Assembly (NCBI GenBank): GCA_963718665.1
Contig: OY970359.1
Coordinates: 1,216,001 to 1,280,000 of the forward strand
DNA from: an uncultured Phycisphaerales bacterium
Lineage (GTDB): Bacteria; Planctomycetota; Phycisphaerae; Sedimentisphaerales; Anaerobacaceae
Reading direction: 5' to 3'
DNA: 64,000 bases
Below are positions 11,343 to 64,000 of the stretch, one piece after another (position 1 is the stretch's first letter; each line of letters begins with the position of its first letter). The translations under genes and the position numbers were made by a program. A model generated the notes under the pieces. It was not told where the DNA came from. It ran no database searches and saw only the letters and a list, made by a program, of their open reading frames with translations.

Positions 11343-11364
11343 TTTAGCCACAGAGGACACAGAG
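11343..11364 (+). repeat. Dispersed 22-bp repeat TTTAGCCACAGAGGACACAGAG, copy 1
   Basis: Identical at 16828-16849 and, reversed, at 55386-55407. Confidence 0.85.
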
Positions 11365-11368
11365 AAAA

Positions 11369-16827: not shown

Positions 16828-16849
16828 TTTAGCCACAGAGGACACAGAG
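16828..16849 (+). repeat. Dispersed 22-bp repeat, copy 2
   Basis: Identical to 11343-11364. Confidence 0.85.
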
Positions 16850-16906
16850 ATTTATCCGCCTACGGCGGAAATGAATAAAAAAACAGTGTAAATCCGTGTC
16901 TAAGTA

Positions 16907-55241: not shown

Positions 55242-55385
55242 TAATAGCCGCCTTGGCCCATTTTTGCAAGGTCAACGGTTACCGGAAAGAAAATGAGGTC
55301 TTCGGCAACCGAGAAAAACAGTGTAAATCCGCAACTTGTTATTTTTGCCTTTTTACTTTTAACTTTTTACTTTTTTCTCTGTGAC

Positions 55386-55407
55386 CTCTGTGTCCTCTGT
55401 GGCTAAA
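55386..55407 (-). repeat. Dispersed 22-bp repeat, copy 3
   Basis: Reverse complement identical to 11343-11364. Confidence 0.85.
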
Positions 55408-55426
55408 CAAAAATATTCTCTGTGGC

Positions 55427-57886
55427 TTACATCGACGCCTTGCGATTCTCCTGGCAGAACTTGCCCATCAGCATCATCGCCTTATTAGTCGCCTCCGCCG
55501 AGCCGTCCATCTTCGCAAACGCATCCACCAGCGCAACCAAATCCGGGTCCGCCGGCACTCGCCCATAATGATGAGCCACGTTTACTATCCCCGCGTCAAG
55601 CCCGTATTCCATCGCCTTTGCCACGTAAGCCCTGCAAACGCCAATCCTCCGCCCCGGCAAATCGCGAACCGAATTACTGATGCCCAGCGAGCAATGCACG
55701 CCTTTCATCGCCGAATCGCTCTTTATTTTCTTGATTGCCTCGAATGCCCGGTACGTATATCCCGGCACCCCCGGCTCCATCGGCATATCTATCGCCAGCG
55801 GGAAAACCGTCGAATCGAAGAAAATCTCCTCCGGCTTAAACCCATACTGCCCCACCGCCTTCTCGTAAATCCTCTTCGCCAGCGAATACAATTCTTCCAT
55901 CGAATGTGACCCGCCCGGCCCCGTCGGCTTGTCCTCCGTCATCAATAACCCGATGAACGCGTAATCGTAATCCCTCTTCAGCGGGAAAAATTTATCCATC
56001 GTGTAAATCTTCACCGAATTTATAAGCGGCTGCTTCACCACCTCATCCGTGTCATACCACTCCTTCACCGCCGCGATGAGCACGTCGTTGTTGCCGCTGT
56101 CGATGCAGATGGGTACACCATCGCTCCACTTTCGCACTAACTTCACGTATTCGCACATCATATTCACCGCAACCTGCTGGTCATCCTCGCCGAATGCGTC
56201 AACGTTCACCGCGATATAATCCGCCCCGTCGTTCGCCTGCGATTCAATCAGCGCCCTGATATAATTCAAAGGCCCGCTCGGCTTGGTATATGCATCAGGC
56301 CCTAATTCCGCTAATTGTTTCATTATCTGCCCCGTCTTCGGTATCGAGGCGTGAACCGATTCGCCAATCGAAATCAGCGCGTTCTTCATCGTATGGTCCT
56401 TCCCGAACAAATAATTCAGAATCGACGCTGTCTTCTCCAGTGCCTTTATCCTCGGCTTATTGATTGTTCGTTTGAGTTTCGTAATGCCAAATTTTTCAGA
56501 TGCCGCTGCGTCGTAAATCAATTCCCCGATGCAAACTCGCTCCAGATTATTTCCGCACTTCCCATCGGCCGTCGCGTCCCCGCACGGCGCGTTTGCGAGC
56601 CCCTTTTCGCATCCCCCCATCGTGCAAAGCCCGAAATTCTCAGGCAAGTAACAATCCCCGCACCCCTCGCAGTCAAATATCAAATACTTGAGCGCACTCT
56701 CATTGGCGTGGAATAATTTATATATCGCGCCTTCCCCTTTTTCCGTCCCCAGCGCAGCCATCGTGCCCCTGAACATCTTAAACCCGCGATAATCAGGATT
56801 CAAAATCGCCCTGTGCATAAAGTTGAAAAACTTATGATTAAACGTCGCCTTCGGCTTCGACAAAGTTCTCTCTCGACCGCTATCATCATAAAGATAAAAC
56901 GCCCTCTTCGCGGGAAAGCACAGATTGTCCTTGTATTGTCCCCACCCGTCGCCAATCTCCGCCGCCCTCTTCAAAATCCCAGCGAACGTCTCAAAATTAC
57001 TCACGCCCCCGATATCCACCCCCGCCGCGCCAATCGCCTTATACATCGCCACCTGCTGCGCCGCCCGCTCGATATGCTGCGACAAATTCTCCGAATACAG
57101 CTTCGCCAGAAACTCATCGCTCACAAAACACCCCGTCAGTTTCGCGTCGTGCATCAACCTCGGCGCCGCCGTCGTTGTGCTCAAAAGAAAAACATTGCCG
57201 AATACGGGGATATTTATTTTATGATTATCTAAGTATTTGAACAGCTCCTGCGATTTCTTCCAGTCCCAGCCGACCTGCGTAATCAAAAATTTCGCCCCGC
57301 ACGCAATCTTCTTCTCCATCTTGTAATATTGCTGCATCTGCGATTGCTCTGTGTATTTGAATGGTGACACCGCCGCACCAGGGAAAAACTGGTGCACCTT
57401 TCCCAAATCCGCCGGCTTCGCCTTTAGATACCCCTCGTTGTTCATATCCCTGATGACCTGCAGCAATCCAATCGAATCCAAGTCGAAAACGCCCGTCGCT
57501 AAAATCGGCTTATCGCCCGTAAGAATCAGCACGCTCTCAACGCCCGAATCTCTCAGCCCCACAAGCGACGTAACAAGCGAATTGGCGTTCTGGTCCTTGC
57601 ACGAAATATGCGGCACACAATCCAAATCGCCCAGCAGACCTTCGGCGTTCAACCTGTCAATCGCGTGCCCCGGGTCGATATTTGCCACCCCGCCCGGATT
57701 CTGCGGCAGCATTATCCCTGCGAAATCGAACCCCGCCGGTATCGAATCAGGGCCTGCTTTCTTGTAAGCCGACAAAAACTTCCCTATCGGCCCAAAGTCA
57801 AAATTCGGCCCGCCCGTAAGCTCCGCTACCACTACGAAACCGGATTTGCTTTCCAGCCGTTCGCTTATCCTTTTCCGCTGCCCCAT
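55427..57886 (-). CDS. Methylenetetrahydrofolate reductase (MetF) + Cys-rich MetV-like + pterin-binding methyltransferase fusion
   Basis: PHISCKDQN, LILTGD, KKIACGAKFLITQ; CEGCGDC...C...CEKGLANAPCG...C...C; IGES, IDS, INSV, FFD, GISN. Confidence 0.85.
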   Translation of the reverse strand: MGQRKRISERLESKSGFVVVAELTGGPNFDFGPIGKFLSAYKKAGPDSIPAGFDFAGIMLPQNPGGVANIDPGHAIDRLNAEGLLGDLDCVPHISCKDQNANSLVTSLVGLRDSGVESVLILTGDKPILATGVFDLDSIGLLQVIRDMNNEGYLKAKPADLGKVHQFFPGAAVSPFKYTEQSQMQQYYKMEKKIACGAKFLITQVGWDWKKSQELFKYLDNHKINIPVFGNVFLLSTTTAAPRLMHDAKLTGCFVSDEFLAKLYSENLSQHIERAAQQVAMYKAIGAAGVDIGGVSNFETFAGILKRAAEIGDGWGQYKDNLCFPAKRAFYLYDDSGRERTLSKPKATFNHKFFNFMHRAILNPDYRGFKMFRGTMAALGTEKGEGAIYKLFHANESALKYLIFDCEGCGDCYLPENFGLCTMGGCEKGLANAPCGDATADGKCGNNLERVCIGELIYDAAASEKFGITKLKRTINKPRIKALEKTASILNYLFGKDHTMKNALISIGESVHASIPKTGQIMKQLAELGPDAYTKPSGPLNYIRALIESQANDGADYIAVNVDAFGEDDQQVAVNMMCEYVKLVRKWSDGVPICIDSGNNDVLIAAVKEWYDTDEVVKQPLINSVKIYTMDKFFPLKRDYDYAFIGLLMTEDKPTGPGGSHSMEELYSLAKRIYEKAVGQYGFKPEEIFFDSTVFPLAIDMPMEPGVPGYTYRAFEAIKKIKSDSAMKGVHCSLGISNSVRDLPGRRIGVCRAYVAKAMEYGLDAGIVNVAHHYGRVPADPDLVALVDAFAKMDGSAEATNKAMMLMGKFCQENRKASM

Positions 57887-58074: not shown

Positions 58075-58527
58075 TTAAGTTTCTTGTCCTTCAACGTACT
58101 TGATTCTGTTTTTCAGTGCCGCCTCATCAAAACAAAACCTGCTATCGTAACTTCTTGTCCAAACTTTTCCTTTGAACCCTCTCTCTCGTAGTGCATAGTA
58201 TGCTGCTGTCTTGAATCGATTTACAACCTTATCTGCCGGCTTGCCGCCTTCTTTGATAACTATATGTACGTGGCTGCTCCAGACCGATAATGCGAGTATC
58301 GTTTCCCCGATTCTCTCCGCCTCTTGAAGTATTGCCGTTCTCGCAATCTCACGTTCTCGTTTTCTCAGCCTGACCTCATCCCCTTTTATCGCCTTCTTAT
58401 TGGCTTGTTCTAATTCCTCACATCCCTCAAGTGTTTCCCCGTCCTTTACAAATCCTCTTTTGTCTCCTTGTAACCAGGTGCCATACGTTGTGAATGTCAC
58501 CATATATCCGAGAGTATTACCCATCAA
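58075..58527 (-). mobile_element. Y1 HUH transposase (IS200/RAYT-like)
   Basis: YMVTFTTYGTWL, HVH, W-x-R-S-Y, C-terminal YV..Q; flanked by REP-like direct repeats. Confidence 0.85.
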
Positions 58528-58570
58528 CGCTCTTCCTTCTTTGATTTCGATCCCGCGAGGTGGGGATTCC

Positions 58571-58606
58571 CTTATCCTGATTTAGCCCCGGCCCCGCGCG
58601 GCCAGG
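58571..58606. repeat. REP-like palindrome, right of transposase
   Basis: CTTATCCTGATTTAGCCCCGGCCCCGCGCGGCCAGG, direct repeat of 58034-58070. Confidence 0.8.
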
Positions 58607-58608
58607 AT

Positions 58609-58884
58609 TCATTTCCCTTTTTTGCCTGCCGTCCGCAGTGCTGACTTATTTTTCGCCATTTCTAACTGCTTCCCAATAGCACCAATTATTTCCTCATAAT
58701 ACTCCGCTATGCTCCTCGCCTCATGAGCACTTGAGCATTCTTCAATAAAACATGATTCGTCGTTTGTGTATCCCTCTTCCATATATTGTTCGGTGTCTCG
58801 CCAAACCTTCGTCCTTTCACGAAGGCCGTCTAAAATCTGACCAACCATATTATCCGGCAATTTTAATGTAATTTCCTTATCCAT
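58609..58884 (-). CDS. Hypothetical protein
   Basis: 91-aa ORF with GGAGG RBS. Confidence 0.65.
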   Translation of the reverse strand: MDKEITLKLPDNMVGQILDGLRERTKVWRDTEQYMEEGYTNDESCFIEECSSAHEARSIAEYYEEIIGAIGKQLEMAKNKSALRTAGKKGK

Positions 58885-58897
58885 TTTTGTCCTCCGA

Positions 58898-59662
58898 TTA
58901 TTGCAAAAATATCTTTTCTCTATGATACGCCAACGCTATTGGGTCTGGCCCAAATCTGTCTGGCAGATTAATCCTCTCGCCTTCAATTTCTAACAGACCG
59001 ATACGATGTAGTTTTGAAGCATTAGGCGTCTTAATTTCTCGTGACACGGCTATCTTAAAATCTTCACAAATCGTTATCAAACCCCGGTCAAAAGCCCTAT
59101 CGTGCAATGCACAAAGGCATATTCCATTCCGTGGGTCCGCCCTGCGTTGTTTGTTCGCGGCCCAAGGGATAATGTGACTCGCATTTAACATCACTGGCAG
59201 GGACATTCTGCATAAGGCACAATTAAAATTGTAACTTGCCAATACCGTGTCTCTGAAAAACCGTTGCACGAGTCGAACCTTTACGCTCCTTTCAACTTCT
59301 GTAACCGAAGGTTCCGAAAAATCAAGAATCTCTTCTTGTTCCAATGTCTTGCTCAATTGTTGAACAACACGTTGACTTTCGCTTGCCAAACCCTGCCAGT
59401 CCTCGTGAAATTCCTTCCAAATATATTCATCCTGTTTACTGCCATGCTGCAACCCTTTAACATTGCGGAGCCGATGCGTAGGGTCTAAACTTGCGAAGTT
59501 CACCATTTTCATAGCGACCGCACTGGGCGTTCGGCCTATCTTGTTTGCCAATTCTATTATCATCGGGTTGGATTTATGAATGCGGCCAAAAGGCGTTCTA
59601 CAGTAAAGGTTGAACGCTACGATTAGCTCGTTCCTCGTCCATTTCTCTCGTGTCGGCGTCAT
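58898..59662 (-). CDS. HNH endonuclease (putative restriction-type)
   Basis: GRTPSAVAMK N-domain; QRFFR..VL..Y..CALC, ASHIIPW, NGICLCALHDRAFDRG. Confidence 0.88.
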   Translation of the reverse strand: MTPTREKWTRNELIVAFNLYCRTPFGRIHKSNPMIIELANKIGRTPSAVAMKMVNFASLDPTHRLRNVKGLQHGSKQDEYIWKEFHEDWQGLASESQRVVQQLSKTLEQEEILDFSEPSVTEVERSVKVRLVQRFFRDTVLASYNFNCALCRMSLPVMLNASHIIPWAANKQRRADPRNGICLCALHDRAFDRGLITICEDFKIAVSREIKTPNASKLHRIGLLEIEGERINLPDRFGPDPIALAYHREKIFLQ

Positions 59663-59733
59663 TTCCTCTAACCTCTCAAAACTCAATCTGTTTCCGTGTT
59701 TTTGTTAAGATAGCATTTTCGGTTCGTAAGTCC

Positions 59734-60117
59734 TTGTGTGCAAGCATTTTCCTGGAAAACAGAAAAAACACTTCGCCGGAAATAATCGTTCGTTCCATCG
59801 TCCATCGAATGGGTTATCGTTACGCTTTACATCGCAGCGACCTTCCCGGCCATCCGGATATCGTTCTGGTCAAACACAAAAAAATAATCTTTGTTCATGG
59901 CTGTTTCTGGCATATGCACCGCTGCCGATACGGCCGAGTTATACCCGCTACTCGAACAGAATTCTGGCAAAATAAACGTCGCGGCAACGTCCTCCGTGAC
60001 AAACGAAATACCCGAAAGTTAAAGAATATGGGCTGGAAGGTTCTTATTATATGGGAATGTCAAATCCGTAACTCTGAAAAACTCCCCGCCATCCTTAAAA
60101 AGTTCCTTGCCCCCTAA
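59734..60117 (+). pseudogene. vsr: Very short patch repair endonuclease, N-terminally truncated
   Basis: KNTSPE, LPGHPDIV, FVHGCFWH, GWKVLIIWEC; usual N-terminal about 20 aa absent; only TTG 59734 as nearby start. Confidence 0.8.
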
Positions 60118-60826: not shown

Positions 60827-62394
<1,568 letters not shown>

Positions 62395-63069: not shown

Positions 63070-64000
63070 TTATTTCGCGAGCTCCTTTGCTATATCCCCC
63101 GAGATCACCAATTCCGAGATTACCTTGGCTGTCTTTTGATGATTGAGAAGAGCTGCTATTACTCGTGCCTTCTTTTGTGAACTTGCGATAACGATAACGC
63201 CAGGTTCCCGCTGGGCGATCTTTTCGAGATCCTCCAGAGTAAGGCCGAAGATGCGATCGTTGACCTTGGAAATTGTAGAATTAACCTTACCAGTTTCTCC
63301 GTTTTTTGTAAGATAACGCCCCGCGATATCACCAACAGCTTCCTTGAGCAGCTTTTCCTTTTCTTCGTCCCCCAACAAAGGCGGCGCTGCTTCGCCTTTT
63401 TCAAGAGATCCAAAGCCGGTCTCTAAATCGCCTACTGATGTTATTACTGTGTCTAGTTTTTCGACCGCGCTCTCTTGACCATTGACGAAAATGTCGTGAT
63501 AAATAGGGATTGCCTCAACAAATGCTCTTGCGATTTGGAGTTCGTCCCCGGGGCTCAGTTTTTTGGCTATTGTGTCGAGTTTGGATTTGATGGTTTTATC
63601 ATTTGAGAATAGCCTGAGGAATGCAGGAGGAACATAGGCCGGCGTTTCCAGAAAGCGTCGTTGGCATTTGTCGGTACCTAAAATCCTGGCCAAGCGATTG
63701 GTAAGATATGAGGCACTACATTCGAGCCAATTGCTGTGGCGTTTATCGTCAAAAGGGAATGATAGAGAGCCGCAGATAGTCACGATAATTCGCGAGATAT
63801 CTGATGTATTGTTCTTCAGGACGTTTTGAACATCTGTGCTAAAATGCTCAAGGGCATCAACCATTTTCTGAAGGGTTCTACCATAACTGAGTCCAATCAC
63901 TTTCATATCAGGAATTCGCTCAATAAAAATCTTCGCTGCAGCATGAGCAACCAATCGCATATTTATCTCGTCTATCGCCTCGTTTGTTAAGGAGGAAGCA
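63070..64000 (-). CDS. SorC/DeoR-family regulator, sugar-binding domain (5' end outside window)
   Basis: IGLSYGRTL, AVGDIAGRY, GLTLEDL, KARVIAAL; frame open to the window edge. Confidence 0.8.
   Translation of the reverse strand, partial: ASSLTNEAIDEINMRLVAHAAAKIFIERIPDMKVIGLSYGRTLQKMVDALEHFSTDVQNVLKNNTSDISRIIVTICGSLSFPFDDKRHSNWLECSASYLTNRLARILGTDKCQRRFLETPAYVPPAFLRLFSNDKTIKSKLDTIAKKLSPGDELQIARAFVEAIPIYHDIFVNGQESAVEKLDTVITSVGDLETGFGSLEKGEAAPPLLGDEEKEKLLKEAVGDIAGRYLTKNGETGKVNSTISKVNDRIFGLTLEDLEKIAQREPGVIVIASSQKKARVIAALLNHQKTAKVISELVISGDIAKELAK

Follow-up and report, generated by a model that had tools for sequence, protein, structure and literature searches.

Domain organization of the fused gene

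What does a single polypeptide do that carries a methylenetetrahydrofolate reductase (MTHFR) barrel, a cysteine-rich MetV-like segment and a pterin-binding barrel, and which pathway does it serve? This question is raised by a gene on the reverse strand of the window, a stretch of 64,000 nucleotides (C1:1216001-1280000) of a planctomycete genome of the order Sedimentisphaerales that consists of one 2.61 Mb contig (C1) and is 94.6% complete. The gene (55427..57886, reverse strand) is a single open frame of 819 amino acids with an ATG start, no internal stops and a stop codon at 55427-55429. Pfam analysis found all three domains above their cut-offs and where the original prediction had placed them: MTHFR (PF02219) at residues 88-264 with 51.7 bits against a cut-off of 24, DUF5981 (PF12225, 'MTHFR C-terminal', the MetV family) at residues 390-463 with 50.7 bits against 23, and Pterin_bind (PF00809) at residues 545-769 with 47.4 bits against 25.5. 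An AlphaFold2 model of the whole protein had a mean pLDDT of 94.0 and a pTM of 0.92. Together with hhalign and Foldseek matches for the two barrels, this divides the protein into an MTHFR (MetF-type) TIM barrel (residues 1-335; 56882..57886, reverse strand), a helical linker followed by the MetV-like cysteine-rich segment (residues 336-500; 56387..56881, reverse strand) and a pterin-binding TIM barrel of the methyl-THF:corrinoid methyltransferase type (residues 501-819; 55430..56386, reverse strand). The three parts are thus joined in one chain with confident folds and conserved key residues, and the same three-domain Pfam set was common to all of the 120 best of 943 homologues. In literature outside subscription journals, searches for an MTHFR/pterin-binding fusion returned general papers only, with this architecture undescribed, and the topics methionine synthase, MTHFR and cobalamin returned nothing for Sedimentisphaerales or Sedimentisphaera.

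Conservation of functional residues

The MTHFR domain fits the beta8-alpha8 barrel fold, as judged from the AlphaFold2 model and from Foldseek comparison with MTHFR structures (TM on target 0.79 for 1v93 and 0.76 for 1b5t). In an hhalign alignment (probability 96.3%), E22, H93, D125 and Q204 correspond to E. coli MetF Glu28, His88, Asp120 and Gln183, which we take to be catalytic and flavin-site residues; the mapping covers these four positions, E. coli MetF Phe223 not being placeable in the alignment. E22, H93 and D125 were invariant in all 15 aligned triple fusions and Q204 was found in 14 of them. The fusion scored 41 bits on the TIGR00676 equivalog model, far below the cut-off of 294, and its MTHFR domain is therefore regarded as a divergent member of PF02219. 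Phylogenetic analysis placed the MTHFR domains of fused forms in one separate, long-stemmed clade (support 100/100), within which triple fusions appear in at least two places, indicating that the coupling is recurrent. The barrel is likely a methylene-THF reductase and is predicted to be a flavin enzyme.

The middle segment contains eight cysteines (C406, C409, C412, C421, C426, C435, C444 and C452; 56531..56671, reverse strand) that were invariant in 15 of 15 triple fusions and were kept in all five rows of an alignment with canonical MetV proteins. The segment aligned to the C-terminal half of canonical MetV from the same genome (G000) and from G445, and about 110 N-terminal residues of canonical MetV are missing from it, so that it departs from the full-length, separate MetV subunit. 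Because this N-terminal part is absent and the segment lies between two barrels, it was filed as MetV-like and not as MetV. Folded alone (residues 336-505, 21-row alignment) it reached a pLDDT of 62.5, which is too low a basis for a fold search. The eight cysteines are predicted to ligate one or more Fe-S clusters by analogy with purified Clostridium ljungdahlii MetVF, whose reported iron and sulfide contents (PMC8760232) are the basis for this assignment.

The C-terminal barrel was aligned to the E. coli MetH folate domain with a probability of 98.7% (hhalign), and D596, N623, D691 and N738 line up with the identical MetH residues D434, N455, D522 and N564, which presumably contact the pterin. 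By sequence, the closest solved relative is the Carboxydothermus methyltransferase MeTr (2yci, E 1e-11). Foldseek gave TM on target values of 0.80–0.82 for the MetH folate domains 5von/5voo, 0.77–0.82 across the MeTr and MetH folate structures 2yci, 2e7f, 5voo and 9cbq, and 0.76–0.77 for the O-demethylase methyltransferases 4o0q/4o1e. The fusion falls outside both curated families that were compared, with 48.1 bits on the AcsE model NF040758 (cut-off 370) and 60.8 bits on the MetH model TIGR02082 (cut-off 1010.85), where the folate domain alone matched; its profile, fold and four aligned MetH residues place the barrel among the PF00809 methyltransferases. The original prediction was open to the objection that the C-terminal domain might not bind pterin or that catalytic residues might be degenerate, and this objection fails because both barrels keep the residues expected for catalysis.

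Candidate methionine synthase parts in the host genome

Profile searches of the host genome yielded Pterin_bind matches in FolP and in the fusion only, and no match to MetE or core-MetE (PF01717), to the MetH reactivation domain (PF02965), to CdhD/CFeSP (PF03599) or to MttB. The genome does encode a homocysteine synthase (NF006096, 739 bits; cut-off 726). Two S-methyl_trans genes were found, encoding a 306-aa protein (C1:577594-578514) and a 620-aa protein (C1:569960-571822) that is YitJ-like (NF006396, 734 bits against 453), as well as one corrinoid protein of 208/214 aa with B12 cap and B12 domains (C1:2135054-2135698) and a 532-aa RACo-type activase (C1:175301-176899; PF14574, 259 bits; AcsV, 357 bits). 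B12-binding domains were matched at C1 positions 689434, 745972, 823042, 1795013, 2135336 and 2173299, all outside the window, which agrees with the earlier remark that the window holds no corrinoid partner. Besides the fusion, the genome has two MTHFRs, one within the YitJ-like protein and one as part of a MetF/MetV set that lies in an Hdr/MvhD-like cluster. The genome check for acs or split metH genes that had been proposed thus returned the parts of a split MetH and no CdhD/CFeSP: homocysteine-, pterin- and B12-binding proteins are encoded by separate genes alongside an activase, and no other methionine synthase was found.

The genome also encodes a 335-aa URO-D protein, one gene from an fhs-folD pair, which scored best on the MtaA/CmuA family (146 bits, under the cut-off of 235). 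The URO-D genes of this genome sit among sugar-utilisation genes.

Distribution across Sedimentisphaerales

Our survey of 81 Sedimentisphaerales genomes showed that the pterin module, fused or free, was present in 79, of which 59 had it fused, 19 had only a free copy and one had it cut at a contig end. MetE was found in eight genomes and a MetH-type pterin domain in five, while 68 genomes had neither; the module was present in 67 of these 68. A strong match to the corrinoid protein of about 210 aa was found in 75 genomes, and the homocysteine-binding domain in all 81, as a free frame of about 300 aa in 77. The only genome with a full-length MetH (1249 aa; G093) lacked the module, a strong corrinoid protein and a free homocysteine methyltransferase, a complementary pattern that is drawn from this one genome. 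The module and a MetE or MetH-type gene occurred together in 12 of the 81 genomes, indicating that the module is not everywhere simply part of the sole methionine synthase. A free module without the reductase part suffices in 19 genomes, and a built-in reductase is therefore not required for methyl transfer.

In the pterin-module tree, free and fused modules interleave. This was read from the genome-derived rows together with P0304 and P0353, since some 'free' metagenome proteins are possibly fragments of fused genes (e.g. P0272, on a 997-base contig), and the row ALONE_G245, which is mistranslated and has a branch length of 8–10, was disregarded. Because these modules have been joined and separated repeatedly, they offer a natural experiment on what is gained by linking successive one-carbon steps.

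Gene neighbourhoods of fused and free modules

Twelve probes were searched by tblastn against 80 fused-gene loci with flanks of up to 10 kb. Corrinoid, homocysteine-methyltransferase, URO-D and RACo probes each matched in none of the 80 loci, indicating that no operon ties the fused gene to its proposed partners, and neither FolD nor MetV genes were found near it within the same flanks. SmpB was found beside the fused gene in 23 of 80 loci and TrpC in 22.

Free modules have other neighbours. In G411 and G424 the free module lies directly upstream of a YitJ-like homocysteine-methyltransferase/MTHFR gene (11-nt gap or overlap), and in G445 the gene order is metV, metF, free module. In G448 the SmpB/TrpC synteny that surrounds the fused gene in the window holds a free module.

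Proposed function and alternative readings

The genome inventory, the order-wide pattern and the neighbourhoods of free copies together best support a split methionine synthase, one of three pathways that had been offered beside Wood-Ljungdahl and O-demethylation. We consider it probable that the fusion provides the folate side of a split methionine synthase that works through a corrinoid protein, and that it converts methylene-THF to methyl-corrinoid. The MetV-like cysteines would hold one or more Fe-S clusters, through which electrons of a low-potential donor (probably reduced ferredoxin) would reach the flavin of the MTHFR barrel, and this barrel would reduce 5,10-methylene-THF to 5-methyl-THF; flavin, clusters and electron donor are inferred here from other MetVF enzymes. 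The C-terminal barrel would then bind methyl-THF and use it to methylate the separate 208/214-aa corrinoid protein in its Co(I) state, from which a separate homocysteine-binding methyltransferase would methylate homocysteine to methionine. Candidates for this last step are the 306-aa protein, the 620-aa YitJ-like protein with its N-terminal half, or both. Oxidised corrinoid would be re-reduced by the 532-aa RACo/AcsV-like activase in place of the missing MetH reactivation domain. Such a fusion would set the formation of methyl-THF beside its use. Several findings count against this reading: the absence of partner genes from the 80 fused-gene loci, the 12 genomes that hold the module as well as MetE or a MetH-type gene, the two further MTHFRs of the host genome, the 19 genomes whose free module has no reductase part, and the catabolic look of the loci of distant relatives.

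Residues 500-819 modelled in complex with the corrinoid protein gave a score of 0.67, against 0.00 for the best of three controls. Of 157 solved complexes 116 reached this mark, as did 2 of 215 mismatched pairs; like complexes have been solved, so that the score speaks to likeness and not to binding. The runs agreed in at least 94% of contacts with a partner pLDDT of at least 85, and the modelled interface pairs positions adjacent to D691 and N738 with the surroundings of the DxHxxG loop. Since solved MetH folate-on states exist (e.g. 9cbq), the score may reflect likeness to known complexes.

Alternatively, the pathway may run mainly in reverse. A URO-D/MtaA-family methyltransferase would take a methyl group from a methylated substrate and load it onto the corrinoid protein, the C-terminal barrel would move it on to THF, the MTHFR/MetV-like part would oxidise methyl-THF to methylene-THF, and FolD and formate-THF ligase would convert the latter to formate and ATP. 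Because distant relatives of the fusion sit in URO-D/corrinoid/formate-THF-ligase clusters, this role is kept as a rival, though we regard it as doubtful. One of them (G245) has a corrinoid gene, an MTHFR+DUF5981 gene, a pterin gene, an amidohydrolase and URO-D, with two more corrinoid/URO-D pairs (three corrinoid and three URO-D genes in total), and its URO-D is 58% identical to the 335-aa protein that lies one gene from fhs-folD in the host genome; another (G009) has URO-D, a triple fusion and then formate-THF ligase, and in a third (G330) a corrinoid gene adjoins a two-domain form. Formate-THF ligase also lies directly upstream of the fused gene in one of the 80 fused-gene loci, that of a Sedimentisphaerales genome (L067), and the fold resembles that of the O-demethylase methyltransferase 4o0q (TM on target 0.76). 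The Ruegeria enzyme MtgD, which adjoins a metF paralogue, is reported to be bidirectional (PMC12478193). Against this, a URO-D homologue is patchy across the order (34 of 81 genomes at E ≤1e-30, only five at ≥70% identity) where the module is nearly universal (79 of 81), the probes found no match in five of eight distant two-domain loci, and the fused gene has neither URO-D nor corrinoid genes nearby in any of the 80 loci and often stands beside the housekeeping genes SmpB and TrpC. Free modules, moreover, pair with a homocysteine-methyltransferase gene, and MttB was not matched in the host genome. Quaternary-amine demethylation was set aside on the same absence of an MttB match. A dual use, as in Ruegeria MtgCDE, in which the module and the corrinoid hub would work forward for methionine and backward when a methyl donor is available, draws on all points that favour either direction, on the URO-D-like gene that adjoins the conserved corrinoid gene in G431, G436 and G452, and on the 12 genomes where the module occurs with MetE or a MetH-type gene; it appears improbable to us, given that the donor methyltransferase is not conserved across the order.

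That the protein is an AcsE-like enzyme fused to MetFV, methylating the corrinoid iron-sulfur protein in the methyl branch of the Wood-Ljungdahl pathway, accords with Carboxydothermus MeTr as the closest solved sequence relative and with the Hdr/MvhD/MetF/MetV cluster of the host genome, which is of a kind known from acetogens. It is nevertheless extremely unlikely: a 94.6% complete genome on a single contig gave no CdhD/CFeSP match, and the fusion reached 48 bits of the 370 set for AcsE. For its own organism, a Wood-Ljungdahl role was rejected on the missing CdhD/CFeSP match, and this part of the original prediction is not supported in this genome. It is also very unlikely that one of the barrels is a non-catalytic scaffold and the protein has a single activity. 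Pterin contacts are degenerate in the triple fusions P0121 (N623S, D691E, N738E) and P0123 (D691N, N738D), the fusion of G454 is degenerate (N623R, D691E) next to an intact free module, and each of the three domains has a modest Pfam score, whereas the fusion of the window keeps every one of the four pterin contacts as well as E22, H93, D125 and Q204, and its pterin domain is the sole one besides FolP in the genome.

The split methionine synthase can be set in a wider picture, which we offer tentatively and with more doubt than confidence: Sedimentisphaerales may use a methionine synthase of loose parts round a corrinoid hub, whose folate part has in most members captured a ferredoxin-type MTHFR, and the hub may also work backward on methyl groups that URO-D-family methyltransferases remove from methylated substrates, the fused MTHFR oxidising them towards formate with a gain of ATP. 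If so, the enzyme would start from methylene-THF rather than methyl-THF, and the reversible hub would give polysaccharide-degrading planctomycetes an anaerobic route of demethylation that depends on corrinoid. Methylated sugars are perhaps the substrates, as the URO-D genes of the host genome lie among those for sugar utilisation.

Comparison with known systems

Methionine synthases in three parts have precedents in Phaeobacter inhibens (PMC5764234) and in Ruegeria pomeroyi MtgCDE (PMC12478193). Their homocysteine-, pterin- and B12-binding parts are encoded by separate genes, as here, they lack the MetH reactivation domain and have an activase of the RamA/RACo type, and in Ruegeria a metF paralogue adjoins the pterin-binding gene; the likening to MtgD and PGA1_c16040 is by their descriptions and not by sequence. 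The present system differs in that its pterin part is fused to an MTHFR barrel and a MetV-type cysteine-rich segment, and in that its host is an anaerobic-type planctomycete whereas theirs are aerobic alphaproteobacteria. C. ljungdahlii MetVF (PMC8760232) likewise combines an MTHFR barrel with a DUF5981 segment that keeps the same eight cysteines, and by analogy FMN, [4Fe-4S] clusters and the use of reduced ferredoxin rather than NAD(P)H are predicted for the fusion. In the acetogen enzyme, MetF and MetV are separate subunits, in contrast to the fusion, where they are joined in the order F then V, about 110 N-terminal MetV residues are gone, a third, methyltransferase domain is added and the MTHFR domain belongs to the separate, long-stemmed clade.

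With MeTr/AcsE and the MetH folate domain the C-terminal barrel shares the TIM-barrel fold and, with E. coli MetH, four identical residues, but the fusion scores below the curated cut-offs, has no CFeSP match in its genome and is not part of a MetH chain. YitJ-type proteins (NF006396) also join an MTHFR to a methionine-synthase module, with the MTHFR at the homocysteine end, whereas here it is at the folate end with an added Fe-S segment. The methyl-corrinoid:THF methyltransferase of Desulfitobacterium hafniense O-demethylase (4o0q/4o1e) matches in fold, yet it stands alone in substrate-specific operons while the fused gene lacks such neighbours.

Automatic annotation names the fusion 'MTHFR C-terminal domain-containing protein' or 'MTHFR (NADPH)' and the free modules 'dihydropteroate synthase', so that pathway tools would miss any methionine synthase in 68 of the 81 genomes and might score these bacteria as methionine auxotrophs. 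Recognising a three-part system with a fused reductase would fill this methionine gap for widespread peat, wetland and sediment bacteria, and such a system would tie the methionine supply of Sedimentisphaerales to cobamide availability. The fusion also offers a single-chain system for two questions, namely how electrons enter a MetVF-type reductase and whether methyl-THF passes straight on to a corrinoid methyltransferase.

In Logan contigs from four wetland metatranscriptome runs (four studies), parts of the gene were matched at 88–99% identity; these contigs come from relatives, may include DNA and cannot rank expression, so that they lend no real support to expression of the gene. A pile of contigs at 55343-55409 is a short-repeat effect.

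Architecture and fold of the fusion protein

The single 819-aa frame on the minus strand at 55427-57886 carried three Pfam domains above their gathering scores: MTHFR (residues 88-264; 51.7 bits), DUF5981, the 'MTHFR C-terminal' family that includes MetV (residues 390-463; 50.7 bits), and Pterin_bind (residues 545-769; 47.4 bits). This agreed with the original prediction of a triple fusion, which had placed the three parts with an error of no more than a few tens of bases. NCBIfam returned only sub-threshold partial matches (YitJ-type MTHFR, methyl-THF:corrinoid/iron-sulfur protein methyltransferase, MetH and AcsE). The closest solved structure by sequence was Carboxydothermus MeTr (2yci; E 1e-11), with MetH folate domains next.

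An AlphaFold2 model built from a 60-row alignment had a mean pLDDT of 94.0 and a pTM of 0.92. Foldseek comparison against the PDB matched the N-terminal barrel to MTHFR of Thermus (1v93; TM on target 0.79) and E. coli (1b5t; 0.76), and the C-terminal barrel to the MetH folate domain (5von/5voo; 0.80-0.82), MeTr (2e7f/1f6y; 0.80-0.81) and an O-demethylase methyltransferase (4o0q; 0.76). The middle, MetV-like segment gave a poor fold prediction when modelled alone.

Residues were mapped by aligning a profile of 15 full-length fusions with MetF and MetH of E. coli K-12. The match to MetF (probability 96.3%) paired E22, H93, D125 and Q204 with Glu28, His88, Asp120 and Gln183, and the match to MetH residues 351-650 (98.7%) paired D596, N623, D691 and N738 with D434, N455, D522 and N564; we take these positions to be catalytic and pterin-contact residues. 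E22, H93 and D125 were invariant in all 15 fusions and Q204 was retained in 14 of 15. Eight cysteines (C406, C409, C412, C421, C426, C435, C444 and C452) were also invariant in 15/15 and aligned with cysteines in the C-terminal part of canonical MetV, whose N-terminal ~110 residues are absent from the fusion. Because the aligned MTHFR, cysteine and pterin-barrel residues are conserved, the concern attached to the original prediction, that the C-terminal domain might not bind pterin or that catalytic residues might be degenerate, was not borne out. These results establish the architecture, folds and conserved residues of the fusion.

Methionine and one-carbon genes of the host genome

Family searches covered the whole host genome, a single 2.61-Mb contig that is 94.6% complete. 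Pterin_bind occurred only in FolP and the fusion, and MTHFR domains occurred in three proteins: the fusion, a YitJ-like homocysteine-methyltransferase/MTHFR of 620 aa, which scored 734 bits on NF006396 (cut-off 453), and a 301-aa MetF. Also encoded were a free homocysteine-binding methyltransferase (306 aa), one corrinoid protein with B12 cap, B12 domain and DxHxxG loop (214 aa when translated from its first start codon, 208 aa in an alternative call), a RACo/AcsV-like activase (532 aa) and a homocysteine synthase scoring above its equivalog cut-off. The same searches of this 94.6% complete genome found no MetE or core-MetE, MetH activation domain, CdhD/CFeSP or MttB. Two URO-D-family proteins scored best against the MtaA/CmuA family, below its cut-off, and one of their genes is one gene away from fhs-folD. 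The organism makes homocysteine and has a separate gene for each part of a MetH-type system, in which the fusion is the sole candidate for the methyl-THF-binding part.

Two further loci of this genome were recorded. A cluster at G000:C1:2191415-2205482 (locus L141) encodes an MvhD-like protein, the 301-aa MetF, three glutamate-synthase-like proteins, HdrC-like and HdrB-like (CCG) proteins, a 1498-aa HdrA-like flavoprotein, a further MvhD-like protein and a canonical 222-aa MetV; it would represent an Hdr-linked MTHFR resembling that of Moorella, with glutamate-synthase-like parts added, in a genome that lacks CFeSP. A second corrinoid-like gene (G000:C1:689317-690124, minus strand; L008:1384-2191) consists of overlapping frames for a 123-aa B12 cap and a 169-aa B12 domain, with the B12 loop reading DELQELG and the His absent. 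Its relatives form one frame of ~245-250 aa, and the split is likely a frameshift or assembly error.

Distribution of the fusion and its modules

A word-index search yielded 943 homologues, the best 120 of which (69-100% identity) all had the same three domains and, where named, were called 'MTHFR C-terminal domain-containing protein [Sedimentisphaerales]' or 'MTHFR (NADPH)'; public annotation thus does not reveal the likely role of the fusion. When representatives at 50% identity were searched exhaustively, 1837 matched at E<=1e-3 and 130 of them reached E<=1e-30. Among the matches were full-length fusions down to 31% identity (P0121, P0122, P0123, P0126, P0128, P0129 and P0164) together with many two-domain MTHFR+DUF5981 proteins (~520-550 aa) and pterin-only proteins (~310-320 aa). 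Relatives were present in 316 stretches of GTDB species genomes, the best 80 of which all came from Sedimentisphaerales-type MAGs. Of 401 genomes sampled across the phylum, nine belong to the order, and eight of these encode the full-length form; none of 16 from elsewhere in the class did so at E<=1e-10. Its one occurrence outside the order was in G009 (838 aa, 30% identity), and seven further genomes had the two-domain form.

Within the order, 81 genomes including the host were used identically in every search; the counts taken from long tables may err by one or two, and the genomes are related, many of them being incomplete MAGs. Of the 81 genomes, 79 matched a profile of the fusions at E<=1e-30: 56 with full-length fusions, 3 with fusions cut at contig ends, 19 with only a free C-terminal module (308-357 aa) and one ambiguous case; five genomes had both fused and free modules. 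MetE was found in 8/81 and a MetH-type pterin domain (>=136 bits) in 5/81, and the module was present in 67 of the 68 genomes that had neither. A strong ~210-aa corrinoid protein, 84-98% identical among relatives, was encoded in 75/81 genomes, and a homocysteine-binding domain in all 81, as a free ~300-aa frame in 77. The genomes without the module were G413, which has another pterin protein of 285 aa, and G093, the only one of the 81 with a full-length MetH (1249 aa). Neither the strong corrinoid protein nor the free homocysteine methyltransferase is encoded in G093, a pattern that hints at replacement of the split parts by MetH in this one genome, to which no statistic applies. Counting against a simple reading, 12/81 genomes combine the module with MetE or a MetH-type gene.

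A differently split second MetH, in which a YitJ-like gene and a ~312-aa homocysteine methyltransferase precede a ~700-875-aa frame with MetH-type pterin and B12-cap domains, was observed at G222:C32:32936-36903 and also in G440:C2 and G460:C1, genomes that carry the triple fusion as well.

In the MTHFR-domain tree, two- and three-domain proteins formed one clade (100/100, long stem) separate from canonical MetF, YitJ-type proteins and E. coli MetF. Triple fusions appeared in a Sedimentisphaerales clade (100/99) and separately beside two-domain proteins, as G009 with P0176 (100/99) and P0164 with the G245 protein (91/86). The pterin-module tree, read without one mistranslated row and including free metagenome proteins of which some may be fragments, had fused and free forms interleaved. 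The modules have therefore joined and separated more than once.

Gene neighbourhoods

Among 80 fused-gene loci (tblastn; up to 10 kb of flank per side), none had a corrinoid, homocysteine-methyltransferase, URO-D or RACo gene nearby, and the fused gene stands alone in these loci without neighbouring partner genes. Formate-THF ligase occurred once, directly upstream on the same strand (L067), while SmpB and TrpC were found in 23 and 22 loci; the fusion gene of the window likewise has SmpB/DUF1844/TrpC neighbours. The surroundings of free modules were more telling. The free module lies directly upstream of a YitJ-like homocysteine-methyltransferase/MTHFR gene in G411 and G424, follows NiFe hydrogenase small and large subunits, HycI protease, metV and metF on one strand in G445 (L121; G445:C1, 4501-10002), and is within the SmpB/TrpC synteny in G448. 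In G454 (L122, 7685-11250) and G442 (L123), an intact free module is immediately downstream of a triple fusion whose pterin part is only 33% identical to that of the fusion in the window, with two contact residues replaced in G454.

Of the four pterin-contact residues, two or three are replaced in some triple fusions, P0121 and P0123 among them, and in G454 and G442 the fused barrel appears as if turned into a scaffold beside the intact module. Among more distant relatives, an island in G245 (L029; G245:C32, 4938-15726) has three corrinoid genes, three URO-D-family genes, an amidohydrolase, a two-domain gene and a pterin gene, in the order corrinoid, two-domain, pterin, amidohydrolase and URO-D with two more corrinoid/URO-D pairs, and looks like a multi-substrate corrinoid methyltransferase system. 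The G009 order is URO-D, triple fusion, formate-THF ligase; a corrinoid gene adjoins the two-domain gene in G330, and none of the probes matched in five other two-domain loci. Three genomes that share a genus have a URO-D-like gene adjoining the conserved corrinoid gene of ~210 aa (G431:C21:13380-14381; G436:C1:223798-224802; G452:C1:368923-369925).

Partner model and proposed function

Complex prediction for residues 500-819 with the host's corrinoid protein scored 0.67 (best of three controls, 0.00), passing a mark reached by 116/157 solved complexes and 2/215 mismatched pairs. The runs had at least 94% contact agreement and a partner pLDDT of at least 85. Predicted contacts involved fusion residues 696-703 and 742-744, beside D691 and N738, and the last barrel helix, and corrinoid-protein residues at about 56-67 and 103-110, beside the DxHxxG loop. 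Because MetH folate-on states are already solved, this modelled result shows likeness to those complexes rather than proof of binding by this pair.

Drawing on sequence, models and gene content, as for all functional statements here, we consider that the fusion probably serves as the methylene-THF-to-methyl-corrinoid half of methionine synthesis from separate parts. The MTHFR barrel would convert methylene-THF to methyl-THF, with Fe-S clusters of the Cys segment feeding its flavin by analogy with Clostridium ljungdahlii MetVF. That enzyme is reported to contain FMN, with iron and sulfide contents that fit two [4Fe-4S] clusters per MetV, and to be active with reduced ferredoxin and inactive with NAD(P)H (PMC8760232). 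The C-terminal barrel would pass the methyl group to the corrinoid protein in its Co(I) state, a homocysteine methyltransferase would form methionine in the last step, and the RACo-type activase would repair oxidised cobalt. The same chemistry run in reverse would give the fusion a methyl-oxidising role, which we regard as unlikely. Use of the fusion in both directions seems less likely still. Precisely this kind of dual use is reported for Ruegeria MtgC and MtgD, with a metF paralogue adjoining mtgD (PMC12478193).

Of the elements of the favoured methionine-synthesis role, a split MetH is already described (PMC5764234; PMC7311316). Also known are MetVF reductases, pterin-binding methyltransferases and YitJ-type fusions, in which MTHFR is joined to the homocysteine end, whereas here MTHFR and a MetV-like segment are joined to the folate-binding end. 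Neither a description of this latter arrangement nor a report of its near-universal presence in one bacterial order was found in open-access papers and bioRxiv.

Other features of the window

A complete bacterial 16S rRNA gene is on the plus strand at 60828-62390 (1438 bits). It may be unlinked from 23S, because the last 1.6 kb of the window gave no Rfam match to 23S or 5S and has an opposite-strand protein frame at 63070-63960. A short repeat, CACAGAGGACACAGAGG, had 4 matches with up to 3 mismatches (0.03 expected) at 55376-55401 (minus), 11349-11365 (plus) and 16834-16850 (plus), two of the copies forming a tandem pair shortly past the stop codon of the fusion gene. There, at 55343-55409, the repeat attracts a stack of many unrelated metatranscriptome contigs, and RNA evidence for the fusion gene is weak. 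A small patch between the fusion gene and 16S (58075-60117) looks mobile or restriction-related: it encodes an HNH_2 endonuclease, a Vsr mismatch endonuclease and an IS200-like Y1 transposase, the last matched weakly at 24 bits.
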